Positions 588 to 60,428 of a stretch of 64,000 nucleotides of DNA are shown here, one piece after another. The notes beneath the pieces were generated by a model. The model worked only from the letters and a program-made list of their open reading frames with translations. It made no database searches and was not told the DNA's origin. Source of the stretch: a virus (lineage: Duplodnaviria; Caudoviricetes); the IMG/VR virus record IMGVR_UViG_3300002168_000002, positions 1-64,000 of that record. The stretch is one strand, 5' to 3'. Numbering within the stretch: the first letter of the stretch is position 1; each line of letters starts with the position of its first letter. A program made the translations under genes and the position numbers.

Positions 588-1334
588 CTAATTGTCGGAT
601 TTTCTATTTATTCTATCCCATTCTCTTTGTTGTTCTCTTCTAATCTCTTTCCAGCACTCCCTACAATACATCTTTCTATTAGACGTAAGTTTTATTGGTG
701 CGCTACATTGTTTGCAATAATTGTATTTTTCTGGTTCGGATAAAGCTAAATAGTAATAAATTAAGTTTCTATAATTACCAATTTTAATTACTACCTTTCC
801 TTCTTCTTTTATATTTACAACATAATAATCTTTGTTTCTATATTGCTTCATACTAAGCATACCAGATTGAGTTAATAGAAAAATATTATCCCAAAACGCT
901 TTATTGTATAACTTTGTTTTTGCTAAATCCATTAAATCTTTATTAGTAATCCTAAAACTTTTTGCCCCACGGAACTTCCACACTACTAATAAAACAAACA
1001 TCATTTTTCTTTGTTCAATAGTTTCTAGCTGATTAATTAACTCTATCTCTTTATCAAATATTTCTACAATTTTATCTGTAACTAATTCATATTTCATTCC
1101 TACATTCATTGCTCTTTTTATTTTACTCTCTAATATCTTGCTATTATATAGATATTGAAATTTATCCATAAGTTTATTTAATTTTTTTTTAATTTCTTTT
1201 TCATTTAAACCTTTATATTTCCAGTATTTAACCAAAATTATATTATCGCCAGTTATGTATTTTTCATTTTTATAACCATTAGCAATAATATCTTCCGCAT
1301 ATTTTTTTTCATCAAATATTATCAATTTCAACAC
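588..1334 (-). CDS. hypothetical protein with C-terminal CxxC/CxxC zinc ribbon, coupled to the phage RNAP
   Basis: 248 aa; overlaps the RNAP stop; CKQC...CREC. Confidence 0.75.
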   Translation of the reverse strand: MLKLIIFDEKKYAEDIIANGYKNEKYITGDNIILVKYWKYKGLNEKEIKKKLNKLMDKFQYLYNSKILESKIKRAMNVGMKYELVTDKIVEIFDKEIELINQLETIEQRKMMFVLLVVWKFRGAKSFRITNKDLMDLAKTKLYNKAFWDNIFLLTQSGMLSMKQYRNKDYYVVNIKEEGKVVIKIGNYRNLIYYYLALSEPEKYNYCKQCSAPIKLTSNRKMYCRECWKEIRREQQREWDRINRKSDN

Positions 1335-4116
1335 CCTTTAATTCATAATATTTATCAAGATATTTAATTCCATTTTTACTATTAGATTCTACTGGAAAAT
1401 AAGCTATTTTATATTTGCGTTTTAAATTATCTACAATTTCTTTACCACAAATACTCCACATAATTCCTTTAGATTTTCTCTTAAAATAATTATACATAAT
1501 ATAAATCACATAGTTACATAATTCATATTTATTAAAGCAAATAGCAAATAATTCATTTTCAATTTCTTTGAATAAAATAGAGTATTCTTCGTCTATATTT
1601 TCTTCGATATCTTCATAGTAATCTTCATAATTTTCTAATGTATCTATTTCATTAGCATTAAGTTCATAAACATAATGATATTTTTTTAATACTTTTAATA
1701 TATCATTAAACATATTGCTATTTGTATCAATAACTATATCATCATTCATTAAAATACGATAATCAAATTCATATTTTTGTTTATAAAATTTTAAATCAAA
1801 ATCTATATCTTCTACATACCAACATAATTGATTCATTATAGATTTATTTACTAAAACAGGCATATATTTAAAATAGTTATTTAAAAATCTTTTTTCTTCT
1901 TTAGTTTTATTTTTCTTCTTAAATAATTCATGTAATTTACATCCGAACATAGCTCTACATATTCTTCCTGAACTTTCCTTATGTTCTTTATATTTTTTCA
2001 TTAATATTGGATAAATATAACACATAAAATAACTTTTCTTTTTCCCAGATAATCTATTTATAAACATCTTTCTTTGTTTTTCTTTACTAGAATCATTTTT
2101 CCAATTTATCTTTTCTATTCCATACCAATAAGAGGGAGGAGATATGTATAAATTTCCTTTACCTGCATCAATAGCAGATCCCTGATGAAATCTAAGTAAA
2201 TTTATTCTATAAGTTAATTCTTTATATTCTTCACTATTTTTAGAAAAACTATCCCTCAAACATATAAATGTGGTGGCGAGATTAGTAATAAAACCTATTT
2301 TTGTATTAAAACTTCTTGTATCCATAATAACTAAATTATTATAAGTTAAATTTTGTTCTTTTGTCATTGATGGTTTATATGTAATTGGTTTTAAGCTTCT
2401 ATCTACCGATTCCAGAATATAAGGATTATCTGTTGTCATTAATAAATCTCCATCTACATCACCATCTGATGCCCTCATAAGTGTTGTATCCCAACCGTTA
2501 AGAATAACTCCACTTGTAATTGTAGAATACCAATCGTTACATTTTTCATCAGAATAAACTTGAAGGACATTGTTCTCATGCGGAGAAACTAAAGGACTTC
2601 TAAATAATGCAACTTCTTTTGTGTCCTTATCAACCCATCGTTTTTGCCACAACTGTCCCTCCTTTAATAATCCTTTTGGAGTTTGTCCAAAAATATATTC
2701 ACAATATAAATATGGGTCTACCATAGCAAACTCATACGAGCCCTCTACTAAAAGTTTACCTATTTTAATTTGGTTAATCTTTTTTTGTATTGATCTATAA
2801 ATCCTATCTCTCACATATGAGTCTTTCAAAATATCTTCGCAATACATTAATGCTTTTACCATATCTATACTGGCATGATTTTCTATTTCTTTAATATCTT
2901 TATCTACTTCATGGCAACCAAGCAAATAGAGCAATACATAAATCCTTTCACCCAAACAAACATCTTTAATCCAGTCTATAGAAAAATCAGCAAGCTTCTT
3001 AATTTTTTCAGGAGTAAAAAAATTTGATTGTATATATTGATAATTTAATGCCGTTAAATTATTGTCTTTCTTTTTGTTTACCCTACTGCAACCCCAAATA
3101 TGCCCGTATTTTTCATGGTACTTTAAATACTCTTCCCATGAATCATACTTCTTCCACATCTTAAATTGTGATACGGAAAGAAGAACGTCAATATCGTCAA
3201 TATGCTTTTCGTTTCCCCACACATCTTTTATGTATTCCTTTTTAGCAACTTCTCTTGCATATCTCTTCCAATCAAAAACTACACAAAGACCCTTTATCCA
3301 GGCACTACGGATAATATAAGCAGATGGAGAATAATCGCTAATACCTAAATCCTCATTCCAGAGTTTTGCCATTTCCGTAGAAACCAAACCACTACCATCA
3401 AATACGTTTTGTTTAACGTCTATTGTACGTCTTTCAATATACCTTTCACCTTTATCATCAACATCAATCCATTCAACTTCCTGATCTGGAAGCACACATT
3501 CATAATCAGGAATTATACAAACTCTTGGAGTTCTGATGTAATTGGTTGAAGATGAATAAAGTGAAAAGTATGCTGAAAACTTGGATAGGTTTATTTTACC
3601 TATTCTCTTTTTAGTTAGACCACACATCATTATTTCTTCTAACGCATCATACAACTTTTCATTTACAAATAAAACCGTATTACGACGAAGTTGACCTGCT
3701 CCCGCACATAATCTTTTAAATGTAATCCCGTTTACTTCAAATAAATTCTTAGCAATATGTATGTAATCTTTTTTACTTGTGTTGGCATGGACAGATATTA
3801 AATCTGGAATGAAAAGAATACCATCAATTTGTTTTTGATATTGATAAATTTTTTTGCTATTCTCTAAAGATTTTTGTAAAGATTTTAAATTATTTCGATC
3901 TCTAATAATTTGTTCTAATTTATATTTTTGTTTTTCAAAATCAATCTGTTTTATATCTCTAATAAACTTTAATAACTGGTTATCTCCAATACTTACAACC
4001 CAACCTCTTTTTTTTGCTTCGTTAAGAGATATATTTATCTTTAAATTATTTTCAAGAATCGTATTGACATTAAGTTTTAGTATGTAAAATAAATCCATTT
4101 TTTTAGCCAATATCAA
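1312..4116 (-). CDS. yonO: YonO-like single-subunit RNA polymerase (two-barrel, eukaryotic RdRP-like)
   Basis: 934 aa; catalytic DxDGD motif (ASDGDVDGD), FRSP upstream, FDGSG, IGFITN, QGSAIDAGKG. Confidence 0.88.
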   Translation of the reverse strand: MILAKKMDLFYILKLNVNTILENNLKINISLNEAKKRGWVVSIGDNQLLKFIRDIKQIDFEKQKYKLEQIIRDRNNLKSLQKSLENSKKIYQYQKQIDGILFIPDLISVHANTSKKDYIHIAKNLFEVNGITFKRLCAGAGQLRRNTVLFVNEKLYDALEEIMMCGLTKKRIGKINLSKFSAYFSLYSSSTNYIRTPRVCIIPDYECVLPDQEVEWIDVDDKGERYIERRTIDVKQNVFDGSGLVSTEMAKLWNEDLGISDYSPSAYIIRSAWIKGLCVVFDWKRYAREVAKKEYIKDVWGNEKHIDDIDVLLSVSQFKMWKKYDSWEEYLKYHEKYGHIWGCSRVNKKKDNNLTALNYQYIQSNFFTPEKIKKLADFSIDWIKDVCLGERIYVLLYLLGCHEVDKDIKEIENHASIDMVKALMYCEDILKDSYVRDRIYRSIQKKINQIKIGKLLVEGSYEFAMVDPYLYCEYIFGQTPKGLLKEGQLWQKRWVDKDTKEVALFRSPLVSPHENNVLQVYSDEKCNDWYSTITSGVILNGWDTTLMRASDGDVDGDLLMTTDNPYILESVDRSLKPITYKPSMTKEQNLTYNNLVIMDTRSFNTKIGFITNLATTFICLRDSFSKNSEEYKELTYRINLLRFHQGSAIDAGKGNLYISPPSYWYGIEKINWKNDSSKEKQRKMFINRLSGKKKSYFMCYIYPILMKKYKEHKESSGRICRAMFGCKLHELFKKKNKTKEEKRFLNNYFKYMPVLVNKSIMNQLCWYVEDIDFDLKFYKQKYEFDYRILMNDDIVIDTNSNMFNDILKVLKKYHYVYELNANEIDTLENYEDYYEDIEENIDEEYSILFKEIENELFAICFNKYELCNYVIYIMYNYFKRKSKGIMWSICGKEIVDNLKRKYKIAYFPVESNSKNGIKYLDKYYELKGVEIDNI

Positions 4117-6808: not shown

Positions 6809-6837
6809 ATTATATCACATAATATATTATTTGTCAA
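6809..6837 (-). promoter_or_regulatory. sigmaA promoter
   Basis: TTGACA-N17-TATAAT with TG. Confidence 0.8.
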
Positions 6838-6877: not shown

Positions 6878-7714
6878 CTAGCAAAAACAAGCTTCTTTCA
6901 TATTCAATTTTTCCCGCATAGCGTCTCTCGTAGGATGTGTATAAACTAGCACAGTATTTAAATTACTATGCCCCAACTGTTCCTGTAATTGCCTTATATT
7001 TAAAATACCTTTTTCCAAAGCGTTAGTAGCAAATAAATGTCGTAAACTATGGGGGGTTATATCGCTACTATATTTATTAAATACACTTTCTATTGCCCTT
7101 GGCACAAGTTTTTCGCCTTTATTGCTAACAAAAAGATATTCAGATATACCGGCATATTTATATTTATCTCTATGATTTTTTAAATATTCCTCAATCGCAT
7201 TAATTGCAGGTTGATTTACAGTTATTTCACGTTGCTTGCTACCTTTTCCTCTAGAAACAATAATTTCTCCTCTGGTTAAATTTTTTAAGTCCTTTAATTT
7301 AATTGATAGTGCTTCGCTAATTCTTAAGCCAGTATTAGCAATAAGTACAACTATAGCATAATTACGAAAAGGTTCATTGCGTTTGATTTTATTGATAAAT
7401 TGCTTGAGGTCTTTTTTGGTTATAGTAGTAGGAGAAGAAAAAGATTTTTGAATAGAAATATAGTCTTGTGATTTAATTATATTACCAACTCCAAGAAAGT
7501 TACTATATTGTTTTAAAGAAGATAACGTACGGTTTATAGTTTTAGCATTAATATTTTTAGATTCTAACTGAGACTTATAAGACAGTACATTTTTCCTGTT
7601 AAATTCACCAAAACATACAAAAAAGTTTTTTAAATCATTGGTATAATTTTTAATTGTGTTGTCAGACTTTCCTTCATCTTTGAGATAATTGATAAAATCC
7701 TGCATTGTGAACAC
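6878..7714 (-). CDS. tyrosine recombinase (XerC/D-like)
   Basis: SAM-like N-terminus; TGLRISE, GKGSKQR, HSLRH, LGHS, catalytic Tyr in VYTH. Confidence 0.92.
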   Translation of the reverse strand: MFTMQDFINYLKDEGKSDNTIKNYTNDLKNFFVCFGEFNRKNVLSYKSQLESKNINAKTINRTLSSLKQYSNFLGVGNIIKSQDYISIQKSFSSPTTITKKDLKQFINKIKRNEPFRNYAIVVLIANTGLRISEALSIKLKDLKNLTRGEIIVSRGKGSKQREITVNQPAINAIEEYLKNHRDKYKYAGISEYLFVSNKGEKLVPRAIESVFNKYSSDITPHSLRHLFATNALEKGILNIRQLQEQLGHSNLNTVLVYTHPTRDAMREKLNMKEACFC

Positions 7715-7736
7715 TCCTTATAAGATTGATAATATA

Positions 7737-7765
7737 ATTATACGATATAATTTAGAATTTGTCAA
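7737..7765 (-). promoter_or_regulatory. sigmaA promoter of the recombinase
   Basis: TTGACA-N17-TATAAT. Confidence 0.75.
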
Positions 7766-8474
7766 GCACTTCTTTTATATCATAAACTTTAAACTCCAGT
7801 CCATACTTATTTTCCACAATAATTTTATTTCTAACCGTCGTGATCCTATGAGTAAGGATTAAAACTTCAGGGAATCTATCAGCTATTTTATACCAATCTT
7901 TTGTTGTATATAGCTCATTAGCATATAACTGATTATATTTTTTAATCTTATCAAAAGCATTATTGGACAAATCAGTTTCAATAAATATAAATCTATATTT
8001 ATTAGTAAAAGGATTCTTTATAGTGACAAATCCATCAGAACGTAAAATGCCGTAATCGTCCTCAACGGAAAATCCAACAATCTGTTCAAATTTGTCTAAG
8101 AGATAAAGTTTAATAAAAATATATCCCCAATTGGTCATTATTCTATGTTCAACAAATTTGAGTTTCTTATCTATATAATAAACGTAAGGCGAATCTTTAA
8201 TAACTTTAACCTTTTTTCTTTTAACCAAAGACTTCATTCTTCTTTGAACAATCCTGTACCCTGAAGTTTGGTGCAATGCTATTAAAGCATAAATCTGTTT
8301 AGTGTTCAAGACACCAAAATAATCAATATACTCAATTATAGTATTATCTCGGAGGAAGCATTTTTTTTGGTTGTTCAAGGACGACTTCTCGTCTCCCATA
8401 CACACCACCTTCCTCCAACAAATTATTAATCTTTTCCAATTTAACATACATAGTTTGAACTTCAGCCTCAACAT
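7752..8474 (-). CDS. replication-relaxation (Replic_Relax) family protein; true start probably near 8399
   Basis: RD...LNTKQI, EH, LRSDG, FIETD, KIKKY, FP motifs; directly downstream of FtsK. Confidence 0.75.
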   Translation of the reverse strand: MLRLKFKLCMLNWKRLIICWRKVVCMGDEKSSLNNQKKCFLRDNTIIEYIDYFGVLNTKQIYALIALHQTSGYRIVQRRMKSLVKRKKVKVIKDSPYVYYIDKKLKFVEHRIMTNWGYIFIKLYLLDKFEQIVGFSVEDDYGILRSDGFVTIKNPFTNKYRFIFIETDLSNNAFDKIKKYNQLYANELYTTKDWYKIADRFPEVLILTHRITTVRNKIIVENKYGLEFKVYDIKEVLDKF

Positions 8475-9537
8475 CCCATTGAAATATACATCTGCCTTGT
8501 ATTTTTGGTAAATCTAAACCCCTGGTATTGTTTAATATCATTTGTGAATCATCCCCACTACGCACATTAAAACATATCCTTGCATCCATAAGAGATCTAA
8601 GCTCCGTAAAGTTACCAGACCTGAAAGTTTTAGAAGAAGGTTTTTGAGTAGCAATAATAGTAATAAATCCAAAACCTCCCCCAAGTCTGGGGATTCTATT
8701 GAGAAGATATTGAATATCTTTATTCTGAATTTCTGTAACTTCATCAGCAAATACAATAATAAAAGGAGGGCGTATAGTAGTTGGCATATCATGAATTTTA
8801 ACATATTTACCCCTAATTAATTTTTTTCTTCTATCTAATTCATGATTCAATTTTTGAAGAACAAACATAGTTTCATCATCATTAGTAGCGAGAATACCAT
8901 ATTTATTCAAATACATGGCATATTCAGATTCTTTATAGTCAATACCAACTACTATACAACTATCATTTCTGGCAAGCAGTAAAGAAGTAATTATATTATG
9001 AATCATATTGGACTTGCCACTTCTAGGAATACCGCCTATGAGAATAGAATACATTCTGGCTAAATCTTTAACAATTAATTCTTTAGTAGAATAACCAATA
9101 GGAATCGGCAGAAGCATATCGCCATATTCACCATAATTAAAACGGTATGGGTAATTAGATTCTAACCTTTTAGAAAACACTTCCAGAGTAAAAGAATTGC
9201 CTCTCCTATTAATAATAACTTCACCATTTATGGCATCCTTAAAATACATTTCTTTTTCTTTAAAATCCCTGTAAGAGATTACTCCAGGCGGTAAGTGGAT
9301 GACAAAAACAAATTCAGTATTTTCCTTATTTCGCTCAACTTTAACTATTAGAGGTTTTAATTCATAATCACTCCACAAATTATCAATAACGTACTTAACT
9401 ATATTGGGGATTTTATTCTTGTTAGGAATAGTAAAATTTGTAAAGGGTAATGGAATATCATCTCTAAGTTTTATGAGTTGGGATAATGATTTAATTAAAT
9501 CACTATAGTCTTCTTTCTTTTTAGGCAACAAAATCAC
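8344..9537 (-). CDS. FtsK/SpoIIIE-family ATPase
   Basis: GIPRSGKS Walker A, IDYK, ELDRR, FADEV Walker B, ATQKP, GR. Confidence 0.88.
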   Translation of the reverse strand: MILLPKKKEDYSDLIKSLSQLIKLRDDIPLPFTNFTIPNKNKIPNIVKYVIDNLWSDYELKPLIVKVERNKENTEFVFVIHLPPGVISYRDFKEKEMYFKDAINGEVIINRRGNSFTLEVFSKRLESNYPYRFNYGEYGDMLLPIPIGYSTKELIVKDLARMYSILIGGIPRSGKSNMIHNIITSLLLARNDSCIVVGIDYKESEYAMYLNKYGILATNDDETMFVLQKLNHELDRRKKLIRGKYVKIHDMPTTIRPPFIIVFADEVTEIQNKDIQYLLNRIPRLGGGFGFITIIATQKPSSKTFRSGNFTELRSLMDARICFNVRSGDDSQMILNNTRGLDLPKIQGRCIFQWDVEAEVQTMYVKLEKINNLLEEGGVYGRREVVLEQPKKMLPPR

Positions 9538-9540
9538 CCT

Positions 9541-9744
9541 CTATTTAGGAATAGAATTAAGAACATTTATTGCTGTTTGAATACCCCTGATAATTAAAGT
9601 GCCAATTGATATAAAAACAGTAACCGCCACAGCTAAATCTATTATTGGCTTATATCTGGCTTGGTTAAACCATTCTAACATCATTTTAGCAACAAACCCC
9701 GTAGCCACAGCTCCAATAATAGTCCAGAGTAAAGGTTGAGACAT
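9541..9744 (-). CDS. small two-TM membrane protein (SpoIIIAC-like size and topology)
   Basis: 67 aa, two hydrophobic stretches. Confidence 0.65.
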   Translation of the reverse strand: MSQPLLWTIIGAVATGFVAKMMLEWFNQARYKPIIDLAVAVTVFISIGTLIIRGIQTAINVLNSIPK

Positions 9745-9758
9745 TTTTATATACCCCC

Positions 9759-10169
9759 TTAATTTCCAAACAATTTAAATTTAGAAATTCTATCTAACGC
9801 ATCGGTAAACTTAATAAGAATTGCCCATAAATTAATACCAAAAATAACCAATATTGATATTCCGTTAAGATAAGCAACTTTTTTAAGCAGAGAACCTACT
9901 TGAGAATCAAAGAATGATACGAACATACTGAGAACATAAAGAGTTAAGCAGGAATAAATAAGCTCTTTTAAAGTTTGGTCAAAATCATCTCCCGATTGGC
10001 ATCCAGTAGATAATACTAATAATGAGATTAATAATATAATAATAACCCTATTTCTTTTTGATATATTTGCTGTAAAAGTCTTTGAGTTTTTCATTGACGG
10101 TATTATTTTTCTTGTGGAATTTGTTAATGCTGTCAAATATTTTGTCCAGATACCTTTGATCAACTTCAC
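9759..10169 (-). CDS. membrane protein / possible lipoprotein
   Basis: hydrophobic stretch ending LSTGC plus two further TM segments. Confidence 0.65.
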   Translation of the reverse strand: MKLIKGIWTKYLTALTNSTRKIIPSMKNSKTFTANISKRNRVIIILLISLLVLSTGCQSGDDFDQTLKELIYSCLTLYVLSMFVSFFDSQVGSLLKKVAYLNGISILVIFGINLWAILIKFTDALDRISKFKLFGN

Positions 10170-10557
10170 TTATTTCACCACCATTCATGTTTCGCTCATA
10201 GATAAGTGTAGTACCTTTAGTTTTATCATCTTTAAAAATAATTTTAATTTTACCGGGTTTTGGGTTCTCAGGAGTGGTATATTCAGTAACCAATTCAGAT
10301 TCAGTAAGATTATCTTTATTCTTTTGTTTTTTATACTCTTTTTGTTTAGTAATAATATTTTCATTTTCCATTTCAAATATAATATAAGCTTCCTTATTAT
10401 CTATTTTGGCAATATAAACTCTTTCCTTATCCCATGACTTAATTTCTACACCAGAATTGTTTACCAGGAATGGGTTATATAGAGAAAGCGTAAAAATTGC
10501 TAAAATTATTATTTGAGTAGTAACTCTTACAACAATAACCAACGGCATAAAACTCAC
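10048..10557 (-). CDS. membrane-anchored hypothetical protein
   Basis: N-terminal hydrophobic segment, 169 aa. Confidence 0.6.
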   Translation of the reverse strand: MSFMPLVIVVRVTTQIIILAIFTLSLYNPFLVNNSGVEIKSWDKERVYIAKIDNKEAYIIFEMENENIITKQKEYKKQKNKDNLTESELVTEYTTPENPKPGKIKIIFKDDKTKGTTLIYERNMNGGEISEVDQRYLDKIFDSINKFHKKNNTVNEKLKDFYSKYIKKK

Positions 10558-10790
10558 TCTCCTTTGAGGATATTATTAATTGAATTTGAAAAATCATTTA
10601 CATTTTCTTGGTGATGGGACAGATATTCTTTAATTAACCTTATAACATCTTCTTTAGTTAGGACTGTAAAGTTTTTAATATCTCTCCTTATTAACTCATT
10701 AATATAATAAGATTTGTTTGGTTGTTTAGATAAATGGGGAAGAACATCTTGTGCAATATAAAAGTTTTTACGTTTGTTGCCGGAAGACAT
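10554..10790 (-). CDS. ParR-like ribbon-helix-helix adaptor
   Basis: RKNFYI...NKSYYINELIRRD RHH pattern; overlaps the end of parM. Confidence 0.7.
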   Translation of the reverse strand: MSSGNKRKNFYIAQDVLPHLSKQPNKSYYINELIRRDIKNFTVLTKEDVIRLIKEYLSHHQENVNDFSNSINNILKGE

Positions 10791-11691
10791 TATTGCTCAC
10801 CACCTTTAAACCTAAAACATTATCCCATAGAGGATTGTTAGAAAAAGTTGAGTTGGGGAAATGCTGGAGTAAATAGTCTTTTAGCAGTAAAGCACCACCT
10901 CCTGTAAACATAATTTCCAGGTTTTCGATGTTCCAATTGTTGAGTTTCAAATGATTAATGATTTCCAAGATGTGAAAATTGATAATGTCAGAGATTATTG
11001 GCTTAAACTTGGACAATCCATTATTAATTATATTGGGAATTTCATACTCTTGGAAGTTAGTAGAAAATCTAGAGTTTAAAGATTTGCGAATTTGATTGTA
11101 GAGAATAATTGAACCTAAGTTTTCAGTGAATTTAGTGTTGGGGACGGGGTTAAAATTGTCTAAAATAATACCCTGACAGGTTAAGCCTCCAATATCAATA
11201 AGAGCTTTAACGGAGTTTTGGAAAAAATGAGGATTAACGTATGCTACAGGGACAGTTTGGGGAAATGCTATACATTTATTAATGTGAAAAATAAAGCGTT
11301 GGTTGTTAACCAAAATGTTAATGAAATCAGTTGTGGAGATAAATTTTTCAAATTCTGTTTTAGTTTTAGTGTTGTAGATGTTTAGAGGATAGTTAATTAC
11401 CAAGTTAATGTGGTTTGGAGTATTAGGTTGGATTATTTTAGAAATAAGGGTATAGGCAAGAATACGGTAGGCTTCATTACGTGTTTTATCTAATTCTAAG
11501 GAGTGTTGAGATGCAGATTCGCCTATTATGGCTTTAAGATTGTTGTGTTGGTACTGGATGGTATCAGGGTTCAGAGATGGAAGATATTCAGAAGTTATTT
11601 CAACTTTGGAGCGTATGCGTTGTTTGGTTGAAAGGCAGGCATAATAGTAGCCTAAATCAATTTGTGTGTTAATTGACATAAAAGAACACAT
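10768..11691 (-). CDS. parM: ParM/StbA actin-like ATPase
   Basis: IDLGY, FPQ, IDIGGLT, TGGGA actin-fold motifs. Confidence 0.85.
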   Translation of the reverse strand: MCSFMSINTQIDLGYYYACLSTKQRIRSKVEITSEYLPSLNPDTIQYQHNNLKAIIGESASQHSLELDKTRNEAYRILAYTLISKIIQPNTPNHINLVINYPLNIYNTKTKTEFEKFISTTDFINILVNNQRFIFHINKCIAFPQTVPVAYVNPHFFQNSVKALIDIGGLTCQGIILDNFNPVPNTKFTENLGSIILYNQIRKSLNSRFSTNFQEYEIPNIINNGLSKFKPIISDIINFHILEIINHLKLNNWNIENLEIMFTGGGALLLKDYLLQHFPNSTFSNNPLWDNVLGLKVVSNNVFRQQT

Positions 11692-11713
11692 CCTTTCTTG
11701 GTTAATTGGTACA

Positions 11714-11742
11714 ATATTATGCTATAGTGTGAGGAAATATTA
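11714..11742 (-). promoter_or_regulatory. sigmaE-like sporulation promoter upstream of parM
   Basis: TAATATT-N14-CATAATAT on the minus strand, matching the sigmaE pattern ATA..-N14-CATAnanT. Confidence 0.45.
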
Positions 11743-11743
11743 C

Positions 11744-11785
11744 TTGTTCGTAAATTGTTCGTTTGGTTATTCATTTGGTTGTTCG
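11744..11785. repeat. helically phased TTGTTCG direct repeats (parC-like)
   Basis: TTGTTCG at 11744, 11755, 11779 and TTATTCA at 11767; 11-12 bp period, abutting the parM promoter. Confidence 0.5.
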
Positions 11786-12146
11786 TCTAGGCGTATAAAG
11801 GACAGGCTAAAAAGTGTGAAAAATGGGGGTTTGCGATTTGGAATAGTATTGGAGTTGCTACGACAACAACAACATAAAATTGAAGGTGTGAAAATTTTGC
11901 GATGAGAGATTGAGAGAGAAAAGGAGTAGGGAATAAAAAATGGTGAGTGAAAAGACTAGCGTCGGCTCTCAGTTACTGGAAAAACTGGAAGATTTTTGTA
12001 AAGTATGGGGTATAATATATAGATATGACGTAAATGACGATATAATCAAATACGACACTATATAATAATCTCGTATAATGTATCTTATACGTGATTCTTG
12101 ATTGGCAAAAAGAATTTTTAAATAGTTATGCACACTCTATATTTTA

Positions 12147-12220
12147 AATATTACCAAATTAGTAATATTACCAAATTAGTAATATTACCAAATTAGTAAT
12201 ATTACCAAATTAGTAATATT
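12147..12220. repeat. perfect 17-bp tandem repeat AATATTACCAAATTAGT x4.3
   Basis: units start at 12147, 12164, 12181, 12198. Confidence 0.95.
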
Positions 12221-12558
12221 TCGAGTTTTAACACTGATAAATATCTCTGAGTATTCTACTTCCAAAAAAGAAATACAAAAATAATAAATTACCAGTTCAA
12301 AAATCAATTTTAAGACGTTTTTTTGCTCTATCTAATATAAAAGTATTCGTTTTTAATTTTTATTCTAAGGCTATTATTTTACGTTTTAAGACGTTTTACC
12401 ATTTTTTAGGTTGCTTTGTTCGATACTTTTAGCCTTTTGTTCGGTACTTTTTTATACAAAAAATCTATTTCCATTTATGGAAAAAAATAACTATAGATAA
12501 GATATGCTGTAACTATAGAAAAAAACTATAGAAAAATATTAAAATACAAATATAAAAA

Positions 12559-19071: not shown

Positions 19072-19143
19072 AGCCGTCCAGGCGGCTATAAACAGTGCAT
19101 TAAACCTGGAGCGTTTACGGGGAATAATCCCCGTAAGGTTGCA
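19072..19143 (+). ncRNA. pistol self-cleaving ribozyme
   Basis: P1 AGCCG/CGGCT; loop TCCAGG pairs with CCTGGA (pseudoknot); UAAA linker; P2 TGCA/TGCA; UUAAA; GCG; P3 TTTACGGGGA/TCCCCGTAAG; G-U cleavage site at 19138/19139. Confidence 0.88.
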
Positions 19144-44393: not shown

Positions 44394-46445
44394 ATGACAG
44401 ATTTTGTAAAATTTAAAAAAGCATTACAAGAAAACTTTAAAGAAATATCAGAAGATGTAAATCATTTATTTGAAATAGAATTAGACAAAGATGAATTATG
44501 GAGTTTATATCTAGATAGTTTTCCTGAAGGTACTAATAAAATTTTTAGACAAAGAAGAGAACATGATTGTAGTTGTTGTAGACAATTCATAAAAAATTTT
44601 GGTAATGTAGTTGTTATTAAAAATAATGAAATTAAAACTATTTGGGATTTTGAAATTGATAGTAAAACATATCAACCAGTAATTAATGCTTTGTCTAATT
44701 ATATTAAATCTAAAAATATTTCTAATATATATGTTACTAAATTTAAAAAAATAGGTACAGATAAAAATTATGAAAAAACAGAAAGTGAAAAAATAATTGA
44801 GTGGCAACATTTTTATTTAGAGTTGCCCGATAGGTTTATCTATAAAGGTAATCAATCAATAGGAGAAATAAAAGGTAGTTATAGAGATACAAGAAACGTA
44901 TTTAAGAGATCTCTGGAAGAAATAACAGAAGATAGTTTGTTAACAGTACTGGAACTTATATCTCAGAATTCATTGTATAAAGGCGAAGAATGGGAAAATA
45001 CATTAAAAGAATTTCTTAAATACAAAAAAGAATATGATAAACTAAGAACAAAAAAAGAAAAAAATAATTATACATGGGAAAAATCTGTAAAAGTTGGAAG
45101 CGTTATTGGAAAAATAAGAAATCATAGTATGGGAACATTACTTGTTAATATAAGTGAGGGTATGGAATTAGATATAGCAGTAAGAAAATATGAAGCAATG
45201 GTTGCTCCTACTAATTATAAACGTCCTAAACCAATATTTACCAAAAAAATGTTGGAAGACGCTAAGAAAACAATAGAAGAACTTGGTTATTTAGATTCTC
45301 TTAGTAGGAGATTTGCAAGACTAGATGATATAACAGTTAATAATATATTATTTTCTAATAAAGATGTTGTTAAAAGAATTAGTGGCGCAGATATTTTTGA
45401 AGAAATGTCAAGAGATGCCGTAATAAATCCTAAAAGATTTTCTAGAGTAGAAGAAATTTCTATTGATAACTTTATTAATAACGTATTGCCAATAACAAAA
45501 GAAGTTGAAATATTCCTGGAAAATAAACATGCGGGTAACATGGTTTCATTAATAGCACCCAAAAATAAAAATGCTAAAAGTATGTTTAAATGGAATAACG
45601 GATTTAGTTGGGCGTATTCAGGGAATATAACAGATAGTCTTATAAAAGAGAGGGTTAAATATGCTGGTGGTAACGTAGATGGCGTTTTAAGGTTTTCAAT
45701 ACAATGGAATGATGATAATTATAATCCAAACGATTTTGATGCACATTGTATTGAACCTTCGAGATATGAAATATTTTATATAAATAGAGGTAAAAAATCA
45801 CCAACTGGAGGGATGCTTGATGTAGATATAATAACACCTATTAATAATGTTCCAGCAGTTGAAAATATTACTTGGACAAGCAAAAATAAAATAGAAGAAG
45901 GCATATATAAATTCTTTGTTCATAATTATTCACATAATGGTGGGCGTAATGGTTTTAAAGCGGAAATTGAATTTGATGGACAGATATATTATTTTGAATA
46001 TAATAAAGAACTAAGGCATAAAGAAGATGTACATGTGGCAGAAGTTAGTTATAGTAAGAAAGATGGTTTTAGTATTAAAGAGAAATTACCTTCAAATATT
46101 TCATCAAAAGAAATATGGGAATTAAAAACTAACCAATTTATTCCCGTAACAGTTATAATGTATTCGCCTAACTATTGGGATGGACAGTATGAAATTGGAC
46201 ATAGACATTATTTCTTTATGCTTAAAAATTGTATTAATCCAGAGAGACCTAATGGATTTTTTAATGAATTTTTAAAAGAAGATTTAATGAAACATAGAAA
46301 AGTATTTGAAGCGTTAGCAAGTAAAATGGCGGTAGAAGATAGTGAAGAACAATTGAGTGGTTTAGGCTTTAGTTCAACTAAAAGAAATGAATTAGTGGTT
46401 AAAGTTAAAGGACAAACAGAAAGGATTCTCAAAATAAAATTTTAG
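44394..46445 (+). CDS. large phage protein with YfaP/TerD-like C-terminal domain
   Basis: HDCSCC; FSIQWN...DFDAH...LDVD...VENI...YKFFVHNY. Confidence 0.6.
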   Translation: MTDFVKFKKALQENFKEISEDVNHLFEIELDKDELWSLYLDSFPEGTNKIFRQRREHDCSCCRQFIKNFGNVVVIKNNEIKTIWDFEIDSKTYQPVINALSNYIKSKNISNIYVTKFKKIGTDKNYEKTESEKIIEWQHFYLELPDRFIYKGNQSIGEIKGSYRDTRNVFKRSLEEITEDSLLTVLELISQNSLYKGEEWENTLKEFLKYKKEYDKLRTKKEKNNYTWEKSVKVGSVIGKIRNHSMGTLLVNISEGMELDIAVRKYEAMVAPTNYKRPKPIFTKKMLEDAKKTIEELGYLDSLSRRFARLDDITVNNILFSNKDVVKRISGADIFEEMSRDAVINPKRFSRVEEISIDNFINNVLPITKEVEIFLENKHAGNMVSLIAPKNKNAKSMFKWNNGFSWAYSGNITDSLIKERVKYAGGNVDGVLRFSIQWNDDNYNPNDFDAHCIEPSRYEIFYINRGKKSPTGGMLDVDIITPINNVPAVENITWTSKNKIEEGIYKFFVHNYSHNGGRNGFKAEIEFDGQIYYFEYNKELRHKEDVHVAEVSYSKKDGFSIKEKLPSNISSKEIWELKTNQFIPVTVIMYSPNYWDGQYEIGHRHYFFMLKNCINPERPNGFFNEFLKEDLMKHRKVFEALASKMAVEDSEEQLSGLGFSSTKRNELVVKVKGQTERILKIKF

Positions 46446-47955: not shown

Positions 47956-49275
47956 ATGTTAAAAGAAAAACAAATTAAATTAAAAGAAAAACTTAAAAAT
48001 ATAATAGCGGAAGTAGGACATATTGTGGATATTAAACAAGAAATAGCAAATGAATTTCTTAGTAGAAATTTGCCAGCATATAGAGCTGCACAGGTTTTTA
48101 TGGGCAATGAATCACTAGATACTATTGGTGATTCTGAAGTTGATATTGGATTTTTATTTTTATTTTCTGTTGCCTTAAATAAAGCAGTAGAACAAAAAAC
48201 AAATCTAGGCATAAAAATAAATGTTGAAGATTATTTTACACAAATAGAAATTAAACAGTGGAGCAATTATAAAGAAGAAAAATTAAAAGATGATGTATAT
48301 CCTGTTATATTTGAAAATGTCCAACAAATTTCAGATCGAATTTGGCAAACCATTATAACAGCACAAGAGCTTGCAAAATTAGATGTTGAAAATTTGTTGC
48401 TATATAATTTTAAAACTCAACGATCTCCTAAAATAACTGTATCTGGTATAAAAATTGATTTTGATAAAAGAAAAATGATTGAGATTAAAAACAGAATATT
48501 AAATGGAGAACAATTTCCTGACCATATTAAGATAAATATCTTAAATAATTTTCAAGAAAAAATTCATTATGATCCTAAAAAACAAATCTTAACAATTGGC
48601 GAGGGTTCAACAATTAATATCTTTGACGGTTATCATAGAAAGGTAGCCAATTCCCTTGTTGTTGAAGAAAATCCCGAAATTAATTTTACTTGGGGACTTA
48701 TTATTACTAATCTATCTGAAAATGCAGCCAGGGATTATATGGTTCAGATTAATAAACAAAAACCAATTAAAAAGGAGCAAATAAAAGTATGGGATTTAAA
48801 CAAGAAGGAAAATCTTATTGTTAGTGTTATTGCTGATGATAAGATAAGCAAGCTTAATAAAGTAATGAAAGAACAAGATATAGAAATTAAATACGGTAGA
48901 GGACTAACTACAAAAAATATTATTGCAGAAGCCATAAAAGAAAATTATGTTTTGGACGATAATACTGATATAAGAGAGTTGGGTAGTTGGATTGTGACAT
49001 TTACTGATTATCTTTTTCATTTATATCCTAATGAATTTGTCGTTGGTAGAAATGAAAATTTTATGAACCATAAATATATTTTTTATGGGTATATTGCATT
49101 ATCCGCACAATTAAGAGGTAATAGTAATTGGAAAGAAGAAACTAAAAAAAAGATAGATAACATTAACTTTGATAAGAATAATATATTATGGAGAGATATT
49201 GGATTCACATCTAAAAAATTAAATAAAACATCACGTAATAAACTTTATAAGTTGTTTAGAAAGGAGGGTTTATAA
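47956..49275 (+). CDS. YopQ-like DndB/ParB-superfamily (DGxHR) protein
   Basis: YNFKTQR, IFDGYHR, QINKQKP; coupled to the MrpR-like gene. Confidence 0.7.
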   Translation: MLKEKQIKLKEKLKNIIAEVGHIVDIKQEIANEFLSRNLPAYRAAQVFMGNESLDTIGDSEVDIGFLFLFSVALNKAVEQKTNLGIKINVEDYFTQIEIKQWSNYKEEKLKDDVYPVIFENVQQISDRIWQTIITAQELAKLDVENLLLYNFKTQRSPKITVSGIKIDFDKRKMIEIKNRILNGEQFPDHIKINILNNFQEKIHYDPKKQILTIGEGSTINIFDGYHRKVANSLVVEENPEINFTWGLIITNLSENAARDYMVQINKQKPIKKEQIKVWDLNKKENLIVSVIADDKISKLNKVMKEQDIEIKYGRGLTTKNIIAEAIKENYVLDDNTDIRELGSWIVTFTDYLFHLYPNEFVVGRNENFMNHKYIFYGYIALSAQLRGNSNWKEETKKKIDNINFDKNNILWRDIGFTSKKLNKTSRNKLYKLFRKEGL

Positions 49276-50270
49276 TGGATATTATTTTTAAAAGAGATAA
49301 TGAACTTAAACAAGAATATTTAAGTACAAAACCAACAGCTACAGCAAAAGCAAATACGTTTGTTTTGCGTTTAGCTGATGAATATGAAAACTTAATTAAC
49401 AAATCAATTTATAACATGAATTATTCTGAGTTATATGAAATGCTTCTTGTACGATTTAAGAATTCTTCGGTAAGAACTATTATAAAAAACGTATCTATAC
49501 TAAAAAAATATATAGACTTTTGTTTGGATAAAAAAGTTGTAGAACATGGAGAAAACAGGTTATCTGTATTTACAAGAGAAGAAGCAAAAAGAATTGTGCA
49601 TAAACAAGCAATGTTAAATAAATATATTAGTAGAGAAAAACTTAGAGAGTATCAAAATATTTTATATAACGAACAAGATCAACTTTTGATTGAATTACCC
49701 TTCATAGGGGTTAGAGGTAGAACTGTAGAAAATGGAACATTGGAAGAAATAATTAATCTTACTATGCCTATAAAAAAAGATGAAGAAAATAACACTTTAA
49801 CTCTTGTACAAAACAATGGCAAAAGTAGAAGATTAGATGTAAAAACATCTACTATGGCATTAATAAGAAACACATATGAGCAAGAAGTGTATGTTGAAAA
49901 CAATAGTCAAGAAACAAATAATGTAAGATTATCATTTCAACCTAGAAAAATTCAAATTAACAAAGTAGAAAATTATGTACTAAGAGTGCCTGGGAAAAAT
50001 AAATACGAAAAATTTACTCCTAATTTACTTAATTCTAGAATGAAAAGAATCCAGAAGTATTTAGATAATCCTTATCTATCGTTTACTTCTTTGTATCAAT
50101 CAGGGATGATTCAGCTTGCGGTGGATAAGTATAAAGAAAATGGGGTTGTAACAAAAGAAGATTATATAGAAATTTGTATTAGGTTCAATTATGGATCGGG
50201 AAATCCAGAAAAGTATTGGTTTGAAGTAAAAGATTTGTTTAAACAGTATAAAAAGTTGTTGCATATGTAA
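49275..50270 (+). CDS. MrpR/YopR-like repressor (degenerate tyrosine recombinase fold)
   Basis: SAM-like N-terminus, FIGVRG...EEIINL, SLYQSGMI in place of HxLRH; synteny with the yopQ-like gene. Confidence 0.65.
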   Translation: MDIIFKRDNELKQEYLSTKPTATAKANTFVLRLADEYENLINKSIYNMNYSELYEMLLVRFKNSSVRTIIKNVSILKKYIDFCLDKKVVEHGENRLSVFTREEAKRIVHKQAMLNKYISREKLREYQNILYNEQDQLLIELPFIGVRGRTVENGTLEEIINLTMPIKKDEENNTLTLVQNNGKSRRLDVKTSTMALIRNTYEQEVYVENNSQETNNVRLSFQPRKIQINKVENYVLRVPGKNKYEKFTPNLLNSRMKRIQKYLDNPYLSFTSLYQSGMIQLAVDKYKENGVVTKEDYIEICIRFNYGSGNPEKYWFEVKDLFKQYKKLLHM

Positions 50271-58235: not shown

Positions 58236-60428
58236 ATGCGTGTACTATTTTTAATGCGAGGCGCACCAGGAGTAGGCAAAAGTACATTTATAAAAGAAAA
58301 TAATCTTGAACAGTATTCTTTATGTGCCGACAACGTTAGATTATTAATTCAATCTCCTGTTTTAGATATAAATGGAAATTGGACTATCAGCCAAAAGAAC
58401 GATAAAAGAGTATGGGAATTATTGTTTACTATGCTTGAAGATAGAATGAAACGTGGAGAATTTACAATTATTGATGCAACAAATAGTAAAACAGTTGAAA
58501 TGAACAGATATAAAAAATTAGCTGATAAATATCGTTATAGAAAATATTTAATTGATTTTACAGATGTTCCTATTGAAGTAGTAAAAGAAAGAAATAGAAA
58601 TAGAAATAGTTACAAAATAGTTCCTGAAGAAGCTATTGATACAATGTATGCAAGATTCAAAACTCAAAAAGTTCCAAGTGGATTTATTGTAATTAAACCA
58701 GAAGAATTTAAAGAAACAATCAATAATATTTATTCTATTAGAGATTTTTCCAACTATAATAAGATACACCATATAGGAGATCTTCATGGTTGTTTTACTG
58801 TATTAAATGAGTATTTAAAGAATGGGTTAGAAGATGATGAATTGTATATTTTTGTTGGCGATTATCTTGATAGGGGTATAGAAAATGCCGATGTTCTTAA
58901 ACTTCTATTAGAAATTTATACAAAAGAAAATGTGATACTACTTACGGGTAATCATGAGCAATATCTATATAATTATGCTCATGATCTTCCTGGAGTAAGT
59001 AAAGAGTTTGAAATAAATACAAGACCACAACTAATAGAAGCTAATTTTGATAAAAAAGATGTTAGACAACTTTACAGGAAGTTTGCACAATTCGCTTATT
59101 ACAAATATTATAACAGGATTGTACTTGTAACTCATGGCGGGTTAAGTTGTATACCAGATAATTTTGTCTTTATTTCTACTGAACAATTAATTAAAGGTAT
59201 CGGAGATTATAAAGATATGGGAAAAATAAATGAATCGTTCCTAAAAAATACAAATAAAAATGTTTATCAAATTCATGGTCATAGGAATGAGTCAGGTTCC
59301 CCGATACAAATTAATGAAAGGTGTTTTAATTTGTGTGGTAAAGCAGAATTTGGAGGCACTTTAAGAATAGTTACATTGTCGAAGGAAGGATTTGAACGTA
59401 TTGAAATCCCTAATACAGTTTATAAACAAATAGAAAAAAGAAGTAATAGTATAGATGGTATTACTATAGAAAATCTAGTTCGTCTTTTAAGAGATAATAA
59501 ATATATTCGAGAAAAGAAATTTGGAAATATATCTTCTTTTAATTTTACCAGAGACGCATTTAACGATAAGATATGGGATAATATAACTACAAAAGCAAGA
59601 GGTTTATTCATTAACACAAACACCAATAAAATTGTGGCAAGAAGTTATAATAAATTTTTTAATATAAATGAAGTAGAAGAAACCAAAATGAAAAATTTGC
59701 AAAACTTACTTGCCTATCCTTTACGTATATATGTTAAATATAATGGATATTTAGGGATAATAGGTTATGATGAAGAAAATGATGATTTAGTAATTACATC
59801 TAAAACATCATTAACTGGTACTTTTTCAGATAATTTTAGAAGAATATTTAATAATAAAATAAAAAACAAAGATTTTATGAAAAAATATTTAAAAGAAAAT
59901 AATTTATCTTTTGTAGTTGAAGTAATTGATCCAATTAATGACCCCCATATTATTGAGTATGAAAATGAAGATATTATTTTGTTGGATGCTATATATAGAG
60001 ATATGAATTATAAGAAATTATCTTATGATGAATTATTATTTGTAAGTGAGTTGTTTAATTTGAGTATTAAAAAGCTTGCATTTATTATGTATAATTGGAA
60101 TGATTTTTATAATTGGTATGAAAGTGTTACAGTAGATGATTATAAATATAATAATAAATATATAGAAGGATTTGTAATAGAAGATGCCAATGAATTTATG
60201 TTTAAAATGAAATTAGCTTATTATAATAACTGGAAGTTTATGCGTAATGTAAAAGATAGTGTTGCAAAACATGGAGCAATTAGATATACAGGAGCTTTAA
60301 CTACAAAAAAACAAAATATGTTTTATGGTTGGTTAAAAGAATTACCAAAAGAAGAATTGGAATTAGATATCATTACTTTAAGAAAGAAATTTTTAGCTGA
60401 AAAAGAAAAAGTGTTAGAAGTAATATAA
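58236..60428 (+). CDS. polynucleotide kinase - metallophosphoesterase - RNA ligase fusion
   Basis: GAPGVGKS; GDLHG, GDYLDRG, GNHE, HGH; KYNG, EGFV, KMK ligase motifs. Confidence 0.88.
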   Translation: MRVLFLMRGAPGVGKSTFIKENNLEQYSLCADNVRLLIQSPVLDINGNWTISQKNDKRVWELLFTMLEDRMKRGEFTIIDATNSKTVEMNRYKKLADKYRYRKYLIDFTDVPIEVVKERNRNRNSYKIVPEEAIDTMYARFKTQKVPSGFIVIKPEEFKETINNIYSIRDFSNYNKIHHIGDLHGCFTVLNEYLKNGLEDDELYIFVGDYLDRGIENADVLKLLLEIYTKENVILLTGNHEQYLYNYAHDLPGVSKEFEINTRPQLIEANFDKKDVRQLYRKFAQFAYYKYYNRIVLVTHGGLSCIPDNFVFISTEQLIKGIGDYKDMGKINESFLKNTNKNVYQIHGHRNESGSPIQINERCFNLCGKAEFGGTLRIVTLSKEGFERIEIPNTVYKQIEKRSNSIDGITIENLVRLLRDNKYIREKKFGNISSFNFTRDAFNDKIWDNITTKARGLFINTNTNKIVARSYNKFFNINEVEETKMKNLQNLLAYPLRIYVKYNGYLGIIGYDEENDDLVITSKTSLTGTFSDNFRRIFNNKIKNKDFMKKYLKENNLSFVVEVIDPINDPHIIEYENEDIILLDAIYRDMNYKKLSYDELLFVSELFNLSIKKLAFIMYNWNDFYNWYESVTVDDYKYNNKYIEGFVIEDANEFMFKMKLAYYNNWKFMRNVKDSVAKHGAIRYTGALTTKKQNMFYGWLKELPKEELELDIITLRKKFLAEKEKVLEVI

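Follow-up and report, generated by a model that had tools for sequence, protein, structure and literature searches.

A seven-gene phage operon combining a ParM-like partition gene with an FtsK/TcpA-type motor and a Replic_Relax protein

That phage genomes can become trapped in forespores is well established (PMC12991052). The known virospores of virulent phages (e.g. phi29 and SPO1) rely on host Spo0A boxes and on segregation functions of the host type; a phage-encoded motor with an adaptor has not been described, and how phages that do not integrate, and low-copy plasmids, enter spores is poorly understood. A gene pair annotated as FtsK/SpoIIIE and "replication-relaxation" is present in more than 100 phages of Bacillus and Geobacillus, and many plasmids of Bacillus and Clostridium also have it. 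This pair has been noted repeatedly, its function never being tested there (PMC4113786, PMC9658697, PMC11526630, PMC9476937), and it has been treated as a plasmid replication or segregation helper (PMC9658697, PMC11526630). Here we describe a variant of the pair in the first 64 kb, hereafter the window, of the 108,575-bp virus record IMGVR_UViG_3300002168_000002 of IMG/VR, which is estimated to be 66% complete. The GC content of the window is about 28%, and the host of the phage is probably a low-GC Clostridium-like organism. The pair lies at the end of a seven-gene operon that starts with a ParM-like gene. We tentatively propose that this operon secures inheritance of the phage genome by positioning and site-specific pumping, an actin-type partition pair having been joined to a conjugation-derived cassette.

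Several described systems resemble parts of the operon. TcpA, the coupling protein of the Tcp system (TcpA, TcpK, TcpM, oriT) of Clostridium perfringens plasmid pCW3, is the nearest solved relative of the operon's ATPase by profile and by fold, and the Tcp set also includes a tyrosine-recombinase-like protein. On pCW3 the transfer origin (oriT) contains TcpK boxes, GGAACTTTA-CAG-GGAACTTTA, which have a 12-bp period and are bound by a winged-helix protein (PMC6137059); the window has direct repeats of a GAAC core at the same period as these boxes, which are of the GGAAC type (PMC6137059). TcpA has N-terminal transmembrane (TM) helices, however, whereas the window ATPase has none; TcpK does not have a nuclease domain, unlike the Replic_Relax (RR) protein of the operon; and genes for TcpF/VirB4, TcpH/VirB6 and TcpC/VirB8 are not present in the record, the setting here being a phage with ParMR upstream. 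SpoIIIE and FtsK share the RecA-like alpha-beta motor fold and the Walker motifs with the ATPase, but this protein has no membrane domain, linker or gamma (sequence-reading) domain and is 397 aa long versus ~790-1330 aa. MOBC relaxases (CloDF13 MobC, pAD1 TraX) are similar to RR in the PF13814 match, the PD-(D/E)XK-type fold, the N-terminal helix-turn-helix and the dedicated coupling ATPase; they differ in that the partner of RR is of the FtsK/TcpA and not of the VirD4 type, that its Pfam match is N-terminal only, and that nicking by RR is putative. ParMRC systems (R1, pSK41, Clostridium phage and plasmid Alps) share the ALP_N domain, the phage partition family, a small gene of DNA-binding size next to it and upstream repeat arrays, but the window operon has five extra genes and its promoter-proximal repeats belong to the FtsK-RR cassette, not to a ParMR centromere. 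As to virospores, the proposed outcome would be the same, a non-integrated phage genome in the forespore (PMC12991052), but the window repeats do not fit the TGTCGAA 0A box.

The annotated pair itself (Wbeta/Gamma, Andromedavirus, Page/Pony, B. cereus-group plasmids) shares with the window the overlapping genes and the small membrane proteins; in the window, in contrast, ParM and a gene in the ParR position are fused into the operon, behind phased repeats and a CATA-type motif. New here are the union of the pair with ParMR in a single operon, the conservation of the phased CGAAC site, a promoter motif of the CATA type and the near-exclusive association with endospore formers.

Gene content of the operon

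The features of the operon and its surroundings, in the direction of transcription, are as follows.

12415-12451, minus strand: two more CGAACAAA units at a distance of 21 nt from each other, some 650 bp upstream of the first cluster (repeat family D5)
12147-12220, no strand: 17-bp unit repeated in perfect tandem, 4.4 copies (AATATTACCAAATTAGT), neighbouring units being partly palindromic with each other
11744-11790, minus strand: four phased units with core CGAACAA, one degenerate, spacings 11, 12 and 12 nt; candidate RR-binding or oriT-like site
11714-11742, minus strand: sigmaE-like promoter motif TAATATT-N14-CATAATAT, ~25 nt upstream of the ParM ribosome-binding site, 13/15 consensus positions
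10768-11691 (probable start 11679), minus strand: ParM-like actin-type partition ATPase (PF17989 ALP_N; phrog_691)
10554-10790, minus strand: 78-aa basic protein in the ParR position, overlapping the ParM gene by 23 nt (phrog_14312, E 2.8e-8)
10048-10557, minus strand: 169-aa protein with an N-terminal membrane anchor (hydrophobicity scan), 4-nt overlap with the 78-aa gene
9759-10094, minus strand: ~111-aa membrane protein with lipobox-like LLVLSTGC and further hydrophobic segments, overlapping the 169-aa gene
9541-9744, minus strand: 67-aa protein with two hydrophobic helices, in a slot held in relatives by small 2-3 TM proteins
8344-9537, minus strand: FtsK/TcpA-type hexameric-motor ATPase, 397 aa, 3-nt gap after the 67-aa gene (PF01580; phrog_1358)
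7752-8399, minus strand: RR, Replic_Relax (MOBC-family) protein, 56-nt overlap with the ATPase gene, start backed by alignment A3
7737-7765, minus strand: perfect sigmaA-type promoter TTGACA-17-TATAAT (12/12), inside the 3' end of the RR gene and before the recombinase
6878-7714, minus strand: Xer-like tyrosine recombinase, 278 aa (PF00589, E 6e-35; PF02899, E 7e-11)
6809-6837, minus strand: second 12/12 sigmaA consensus, TTGACA-17-TATAAT, ahead of the helicase block

Seven minus-strand genes overlap or abut between 11691 and 7752 and are one operon; the tyrosine recombinase gene is next. This layout had been read from the letters of the sequence in the original prediction, whose gene identities are essentially right in outline. 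The TAATATT-N14-CATAATAT motif (11742-11714) and the phased repeats (11744-11790) that it had placed ahead of the operon are both present. It had also noted that the window contains no VirB4 or other mating-pair genes, and this extends further: neither a VirB4-type ATPase (PF12846) nor a second FtsK-like gene, nor genes for VirB6 and VirB8 (the TcpH and TcpC equivalents), were found in the 108.6-kb record (66% complete).

The first gene encodes an actin-fold ATPase, which matches PF17989 (ALP_N) with 52.8 bits (cut-off 26.3; E 6.5e-14) and the partition protein family phrog_691 over its full length (E 5e-39); matches of its C-terminal half to ParM/MreB-like models were below threshold. The 78-aa protein encoded next gave only faint ribbon-helix-helix- or MazE-like matches. 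It is possibly a ribbon-helix-helix protein and, by position only, a candidate ParR. Thus, of the predicted ParM-ParR pair the first member is backed by ALP_N and phrog_691, and the second by its place in the operon.

No family match was obtained for the 169-aa protein, for which a search of the ESM Atlas was also empty; its one relative, of 189 aa, is encoded in the corresponding cassette of locus L013 (E 3.5e-5). Family searches gave no match either for the ~111-aa LLVLSTGC protein or for the 67-aa protein.

The ATPase scores 36.7 bits with PF01580, and its GKS and DE motifs (Walker A and B) are invariant in the alignment. When a profile of this protein and 16 relatives was compared with the PDB, TcpA (6o1z) was the best match (E 3.6e-36), FtsK motors giving 7e-32. 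The AlphaFold model (pLDDT 84) is an alpha-beta motor, globular from residue 9 and lacking a membrane helix, for which Foldseek returned TcpA first (E 5e-22, TM-score 0.69) and then the FtsK motor (E 2e-19). The hydrophobicity scan revealed no hydrophobic segment, hence no TM anchor, and no gamma domain was seen in the model or by Foldseek; the NCBIfam FtsK model gave 23.7 bits versus a cut-off of 1566. Because the membrane domain and the gamma domain are both missing, the ATPase is not a SpoIIIE ortholog. The FtsK/SpoIIIE gene of the original prediction is therefore an FtsK-type motor to which TcpA is closer than SpoIIIE. Its identity to the ATPases of Bacillus and Geobacillus phages and B. 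cereus-group plasmids is only 22-29%; nearer homologs, at 62-71% identity, exist. The C-terminus is a disordered 20-residue tail ending in LPPR, and the stretch coding for this tail (8344-8403) overlaps the start of the RR gene. Across 17 homologs these last four residues vary little or not at all, the disordered linker before them being variable, and they may be a docking peptide.

RR matches PF13814 with 27.9 bits (cut-off 25.3), the match being limited to the N-terminal 55 residues, and it has full-length matches to phrog_2190 and phrog_9996. PF13814, the family of the MOBC relaxases, has been placed in the PD-(D/E)XK superfamily (PMC3424549, PMC5357655). The RR model (pLDDT 92) consists of an N-terminal winged helix followed by an alpha/beta PD-(D/E)XK-like domain; residues D122, E141, D143 and K151, a D...ExD...K signature, are invariant in 17 sequences, and weak fold matches (E 1e-3 to 1e-2) were obtained to the restriction-type nucleases FokI, Can2, EndoMS and Shedu. 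The earlier description as a relaxase-like protein is right as to the family (Replic_Relax/MOBC); more exactly, RR is a winged helix-turn-helix (wHTH) plus PD-(D/E)XK-like protein.

The recombinase has both the catalytic domain and the SAM-like N-domain. The XerA, XerC and XerD models gave 178, 171 and 160 bits versus cut-offs of 220, 335 and 330 (E 1e-47 to 1e-52), and by these scores the protein is Xer-like and not a XerA, XerC or XerD equivalog. As it is preceded by a perfect sigmaA promoter (7765-7737), the recombinase gene is a separate transcription unit and not the simple tail of the operon for which it had been taken. One of the two sigmaA consensus promoters (6809-6837 and 7737-7765) carries a TG extension. 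The gene is not conserved with the cassette either, being found near it in only 9/62 loci.

The cassette and its repeats in relatives

Relatives were taken from 41 viral contigs and 11 bacterial genomes, plus more from a one-phylum sample. In 33 of the 41 viral loci the ATPase gene is followed by RR, the two genes overlapping briefly, and the genomic loci scanned have the pair intact as well. Small proteins with 2-3 TM helices accompany the pair, mostly downstream, and in 10 loci there is also a protein that combines two TM helices with an M23 peptidase domain. The pair with a small membrane protein is also present in Wbeta/Gamma phages, Andromedavirus, B. cereus-group plasmids, C. botulinum plasmids and Thermoanaerobacterium pMU3262. 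FtsK-RR together with small membrane proteins is, then, a widespread cassette that is already widely annotated. Virulent sipho- and podophages (Andromedavirus, Page, Pony) also carry it. The order ParM, ribbon-helix-helix protein, membrane protein, FtsK, RR found in the window recurs in loci L007 and L052, and ParM is near FtsK-RR in Thermoanaerobacterium pMU3262 and B. mycoides pl36.

A conserved 78-aa two-helix membrane protein (GVGSW...GKGQ) is encoded downstream of RR in L004, L005, L006, L029, L049, L051, L053 and L055; it is followed by a protein of ~193 aa that has two TM helices and whose M23 peptidase domain is intact. Only faint SpoIIIAC matches were found for this 78-aa family.

The 96% identical B. 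subtilis phages 268TH002 and 268TH007 differ mainly by a 2.5-kb FtsK-RR-HTH block, which 268TH007 has and 268TH002 does not (PMC9476937), and since this block contains the pair, the pair is accessory in these phages. Megablast of 6878-11900 against the phage and plasmid collections gave no match, and single-protein scans of viral and metagenome contigs yielded no close relative with usable context, but only one 1.3-kb fragment.

Among 50,697 phage records, RR homologs were found in 97 Bacillus, 6 Geobacillus and 2 Staphylococcus phages; the closest relatives of the two Staphylococcus phages are Bacillus phages, and RR adjoins the ATPase gene in nearly all phage matches listed. The genomic and plasmid relatives are from Clostridium, Thermoanaerobacterium, Desulfosporosinus, Desulfotomaculum, Pelosinus, Dethiobacter and Peptococcaceae. 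Thus, homologs in non-sporulating hosts, which would have spoken against the sporulation link of the original prediction, are rare, RR being nearly confined to elements of endospore formers (103/105 records of cultured phages).

The CGAACAA core is present 11 times in the window versus 3.7 expected, a count reached by 0/100 shuffles, and 5 of the 11 copies lie within 11744-12443. Among 795 kb of related loci the pattern CGAAC-N6-7-CGAAC has 13 matches, 10 of which are just upstream of FtsK on the same strand. These 10 fall in two clades lacking ParMR, namely L013-L024 and the Pelosinus locus L046/L064. Because the phased CGAAC repeats precede FtsK in clades without ParMR, they are a cis element of the FtsK-RR cassette, and since they track with ParMR-less FtsK-RR, a protein of the cassette is a likelier binder than ParR. 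The cassette has a single conserved candidate for DNA binding, RR, which, judged from these comparisons, would be the protein on the repeats.

ParR was rejected as the binder of the phased repeats, identical repeats being present in cassettes that lack ParMR, and the ParR site that had been predicted here is not borne out. Two other assignments were also rejected: Spo0A boxes (TGTCGAA), which are not compatible with the conserved C after CGAA and the poor 5' half, and LexA boxes, of which CGAAC is a half-site but whose palindromic arrangement is not that of these direct repeats. The 17-bp array at 12147-12220 could be a candidate ParR centromere, an iteron array or an operator array.

The sequence GGACAA(A), one base away from the CGAACAA unit, recurs near the putative -35 of many cassettes (upstream regions of L013, L017, L005, L010, L060 and L058). 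A B. toyonensis plasmid and Wbeta are among its carriers.

Function, setting and rival explanations

The proposed mechanism would be as follows. ParM and the 78-aa protein would constitute an actin-type partition pair. RR would recognise the phased CGAAC repeats at the head of the operon, used as an oriT-like loading site, and would load the TcpA/FtsK-type hexameric motor. As the motor does not have a membrane anchor of its own, we propose that the small membrane proteins encoded with it tether it to the membrane. The motor would then drive double-stranded DNA of the phage itself, presumably extrachromosomal, across or away from the closing septum, and the separately transcribed Xer-like recombinase would resolve multimers. 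Sporulation would be the most likely setting, although this part, taken alone, is less likely than not: with expression of the operon from a sigmaE/sigmaK-type (CATA) promoter, the phage genome would end up in the forespore, giving a "virospore". FtsK and TcpA motors are double-stranded DNA pumps, and the "nick-and-pump" machine that had been envisaged for the operon is therefore not implied.

The sigmaE consensus, ATA at -35 and CATA at -10, is valid in Clostridia too (PMC3789822), and the motif at 11742-11714 has this architecture: a -35 ATA-type box, a spacer within 13-15 nt and a -10 CATA-type box. The full pattern KMATATT-N14-CATANNNT is present in 2 copies in the window versus 0.37 expected. 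The value of the motif rests on its position directly ahead of the first gene and not on pattern counts. Regions from -400 to +130 were scored for an ATA core, a 13-15 nt spacer and a CATA core, with at least 12/15 positions matching. Such sigmaE-like motifs were found in 16/42 module regions versus 70/761 other gene starts in the same loci, an enrichment of the kind that the original prediction had expected upstream of homologous FtsK-RR modules. Counted by sequence cluster, the motif is present in 9/17 clusters and 5/11 singletons; with a score of at least 13, 120-nt windows and intergenic controls, the numbers are 9/39 modules versus 31/488. The arrangement ahead of the cassette in L013-L024 is AATATGGACAAA, 9 variable nt, GCATAAACT, two CGAAC units and the ribosome-binding site, both boxes being kept within the clade and the spacer being variable. 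Motifs of this kind are also present ahead of Wbeta wp20 and of the pMU3262 cassette. The latter (L003, 6212-8549) consists of a SpoIIIAC/AD-family gene, a 120-aa gene, FtsK-like, RR and then a Spo0E-family gene; its first gene is a true member of the SpoIIIAC/AD family (PF06686, E 3.9e-13), and ParM and a tyrosine recombinase are ~3 kb away. All 9 RR-positive genomes carry SpoIVA versus 323/401 sampled genomes, a comparison that has no power as a test.

Several observations weigh against the proposed function and, most of all, its setting. The motor is without SpoIIIE's membrane and gamma domains, and the 67-aa protein has no detectable homology to the 78-aa membrane family of relatives (hhalign probability 0.3%). 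The simpler pattern ATATT-N14-CATA is present in 5 copies in the window versus 3.6 expected, which is near chance in AT-rich DNA, and the same bases contain a weak sigmaA alternative, GTAATA-16-CATAAT (8/12 positions). The promoter ahead of the operon could also belong to the phage's own sigma factor or to an RdRP/YonO-like polymerase. More than half of the relatives lack the sigmaE-like motif, and the restriction to spore formers is confounded by phylogeny. Moreover, sigmaE is active only once the polar septum has formed, and a new route across two membranes would therefore be needed. In phage Fah, FtsK is a gene of the delayed class, transcribed in vegetative lytic infection (PMC4113786). 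Finally, a large serine recombinase and a second integrase are encoded in the record, and the phage may therefore integrate or invert DNA, besides or instead of persisting as a plasmid. Taken together, the comparative data (motif enrichment and host range) favour the sporulation-coupled delivery of the original prediction, and the vegetative transcription of the Fah homolog, the post-septal action of sigmaE and a motor unlike SpoIIIE speak against it; judged from sequence comparisons, delivery to the forespore is an idea to be taken seriously, but is less likely than not.

The anatomy of the cassette is now defined: it consists of a motor like TcpA, an adaptor of the wHTH-nuclease type, small membrane proteins and a CGAAC site that is conserved and phased at 12 bp. 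Together with the CATA-type motif and the endospore-former host range, this anatomy makes a vague suggestion in the literature a testable model; should the link to sporulation prove wrong, what is left is an unusual module of the conjugation type inside phages.

One specific form of the proposal is that the FtsK/TcpA-like, RR and membrane-protein cassette constitutes a conjugation-derived "intracellular transfer" system. It would be expressed from the sigmaE-type promoter in the mother cell and would use the CGAAC repeats as transfer origin; ParMR would bring the genome to the septum, and pumping would be into the forespore, the DNA path perhaps leading through or beside the septal pore or the SpoIIIA-SpoIIQ channel. 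We regard this form as rather unlikely.

Also unlikely, in our estimate, is that the operon contains a mobilisation module, as in integrative mobilisable elements, in which RR is a MOBC-type relaxase or oriT-binder, the TcpA-like ATPase is the coupling protein and the type IV secretion system (T4SS) channel is provided by a co-resident conjugative element. TcpA is indeed the closest solved relative of the ATPase, PF13814 is the MOBC relaxase family, elements with a coupling protein, a relaxase and an integrase in that order are known (PMC5357655), and the 12-bp phased GAAC repeats share the layout of the TcpK boxes of the pCW3 oriT (PMC6137059). Relatives adjoin integrases at element edges and include an M23 cell-wall hydrolase, a faint, below-threshold T4SS-pilin-like match exists in phage Novomoskovsk (PMC9658697), and plasmids with a homolog were typed as mobilisable (78) or conjugative (46). 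However, VirB4, VirB6 and VirB8 were not found in the record (66% complete), and mobilisation would have no obvious use in the virulent Andromedavirus, Page and Pony, which carry the cassette. TcpA-type conjugation is common in streptococci and enterococci, yet FtsK-RR was not found in their phages among the 50,697 phage records. The linkage to ParM and the sigmaE-like motif would be left without explanation.

Less probable still is a plasmid-state replicon, with RR as a nicking or origin-binding initiator and the FtsK-like ring as loader or helicase at an origin at 11.7-12.9 kb, ParMR and the Xer-like recombinase completing the block. The PHROG names of the RR families ("replication initiation protein", "replication initiation by nicking"), the iteron-like arrays upstream and the literature view of the pair as plasmid replication or segregation helpers (PMC9658697, PMC11526630) agree with such a role, as does the location of the cassette, which adjoins ParM in several plasmids and in many B. 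cereus-group plasmids is ~3.3 kb from the start of the record. The phage, however, has its own DnaB-like helicase, primase, polymerase and ligase; the cassette is dispensable for replication in the 96%-identical B. subtilis phage pair (PMC9476937); membrane proteins and a cell-wall hydrolase would be odd partners for a replicon; and the GC-skew switch near 10-12 kb, which coincides with the gene-strand switch, is not independent evidence of an origin. That the motor is a vegetative helper, which keeps normal division septa clear of phage DNA and switches on the Xer-like recombinase next to it, in the way that FtsK acts on XerCD at dif, is very improbable: the two genes are neighbours and recombinases are near the cassette in several relatives, but the motor lacks the gamma domain, the part that makes contact with XerD and reads polarity signals, the recombinase has its own promoter and is conserved with the cassette in only 9/62 loci, and RR and the repeats would have no role.

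Genome surroundings

Up to 11.7 kb the genes are on the minus strand, and from 12.9 kb they are on the plus strand; the 1.2 kb separating these blocks is a divergent control region. The coincidence of the GC-skew switch with this change of strand is the reason why it was rejected as evidence of an origin. Besides the replication genes, the record has a sigma factor gene and several genes that bear on the state of the phage or on its transcription; structural genes were not found in its 108,575 bp (66% complete).

1312-4116, minus strand: RdRP-family protein, 934 aa (PF05183; phrog_8308), with a DGDVDGD motif, downstream of the operon on the same strand; probably a YonO/QDE-1-like single-subunit RNA polymerase
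49275-50270, plus strand: second integrase-family gene (phrog_5830)
Record positions 99933-101633 (L068:15933-17633): large serine recombinase, 566 aa (phrog_95)
Record-encoded replication set: DnaB-like helicase, primase, polymerase, NAD ligase and ribonucleotide reductase

Three further features were noted on the plus strand. A Pistol ribozyme (Rfam RF02679, 61 bits) is located at 19072-19143, and an RNA-repair enzyme of 730 aa, a fusion of polynucleotide kinase/phosphatase and RNA ligase (phrog_8238), is encoded at 58236-60428. The gene at 44394-46445 encodes a 683-aa protein of phrog_1735 to which no function was assigned; it is 62-64% identical to proteins of Bacillus Bastille-like myophages and of Clostridioides phage pCD1602_4, and proteins of this type are present in 552 phage records, many of them enterobacterial.

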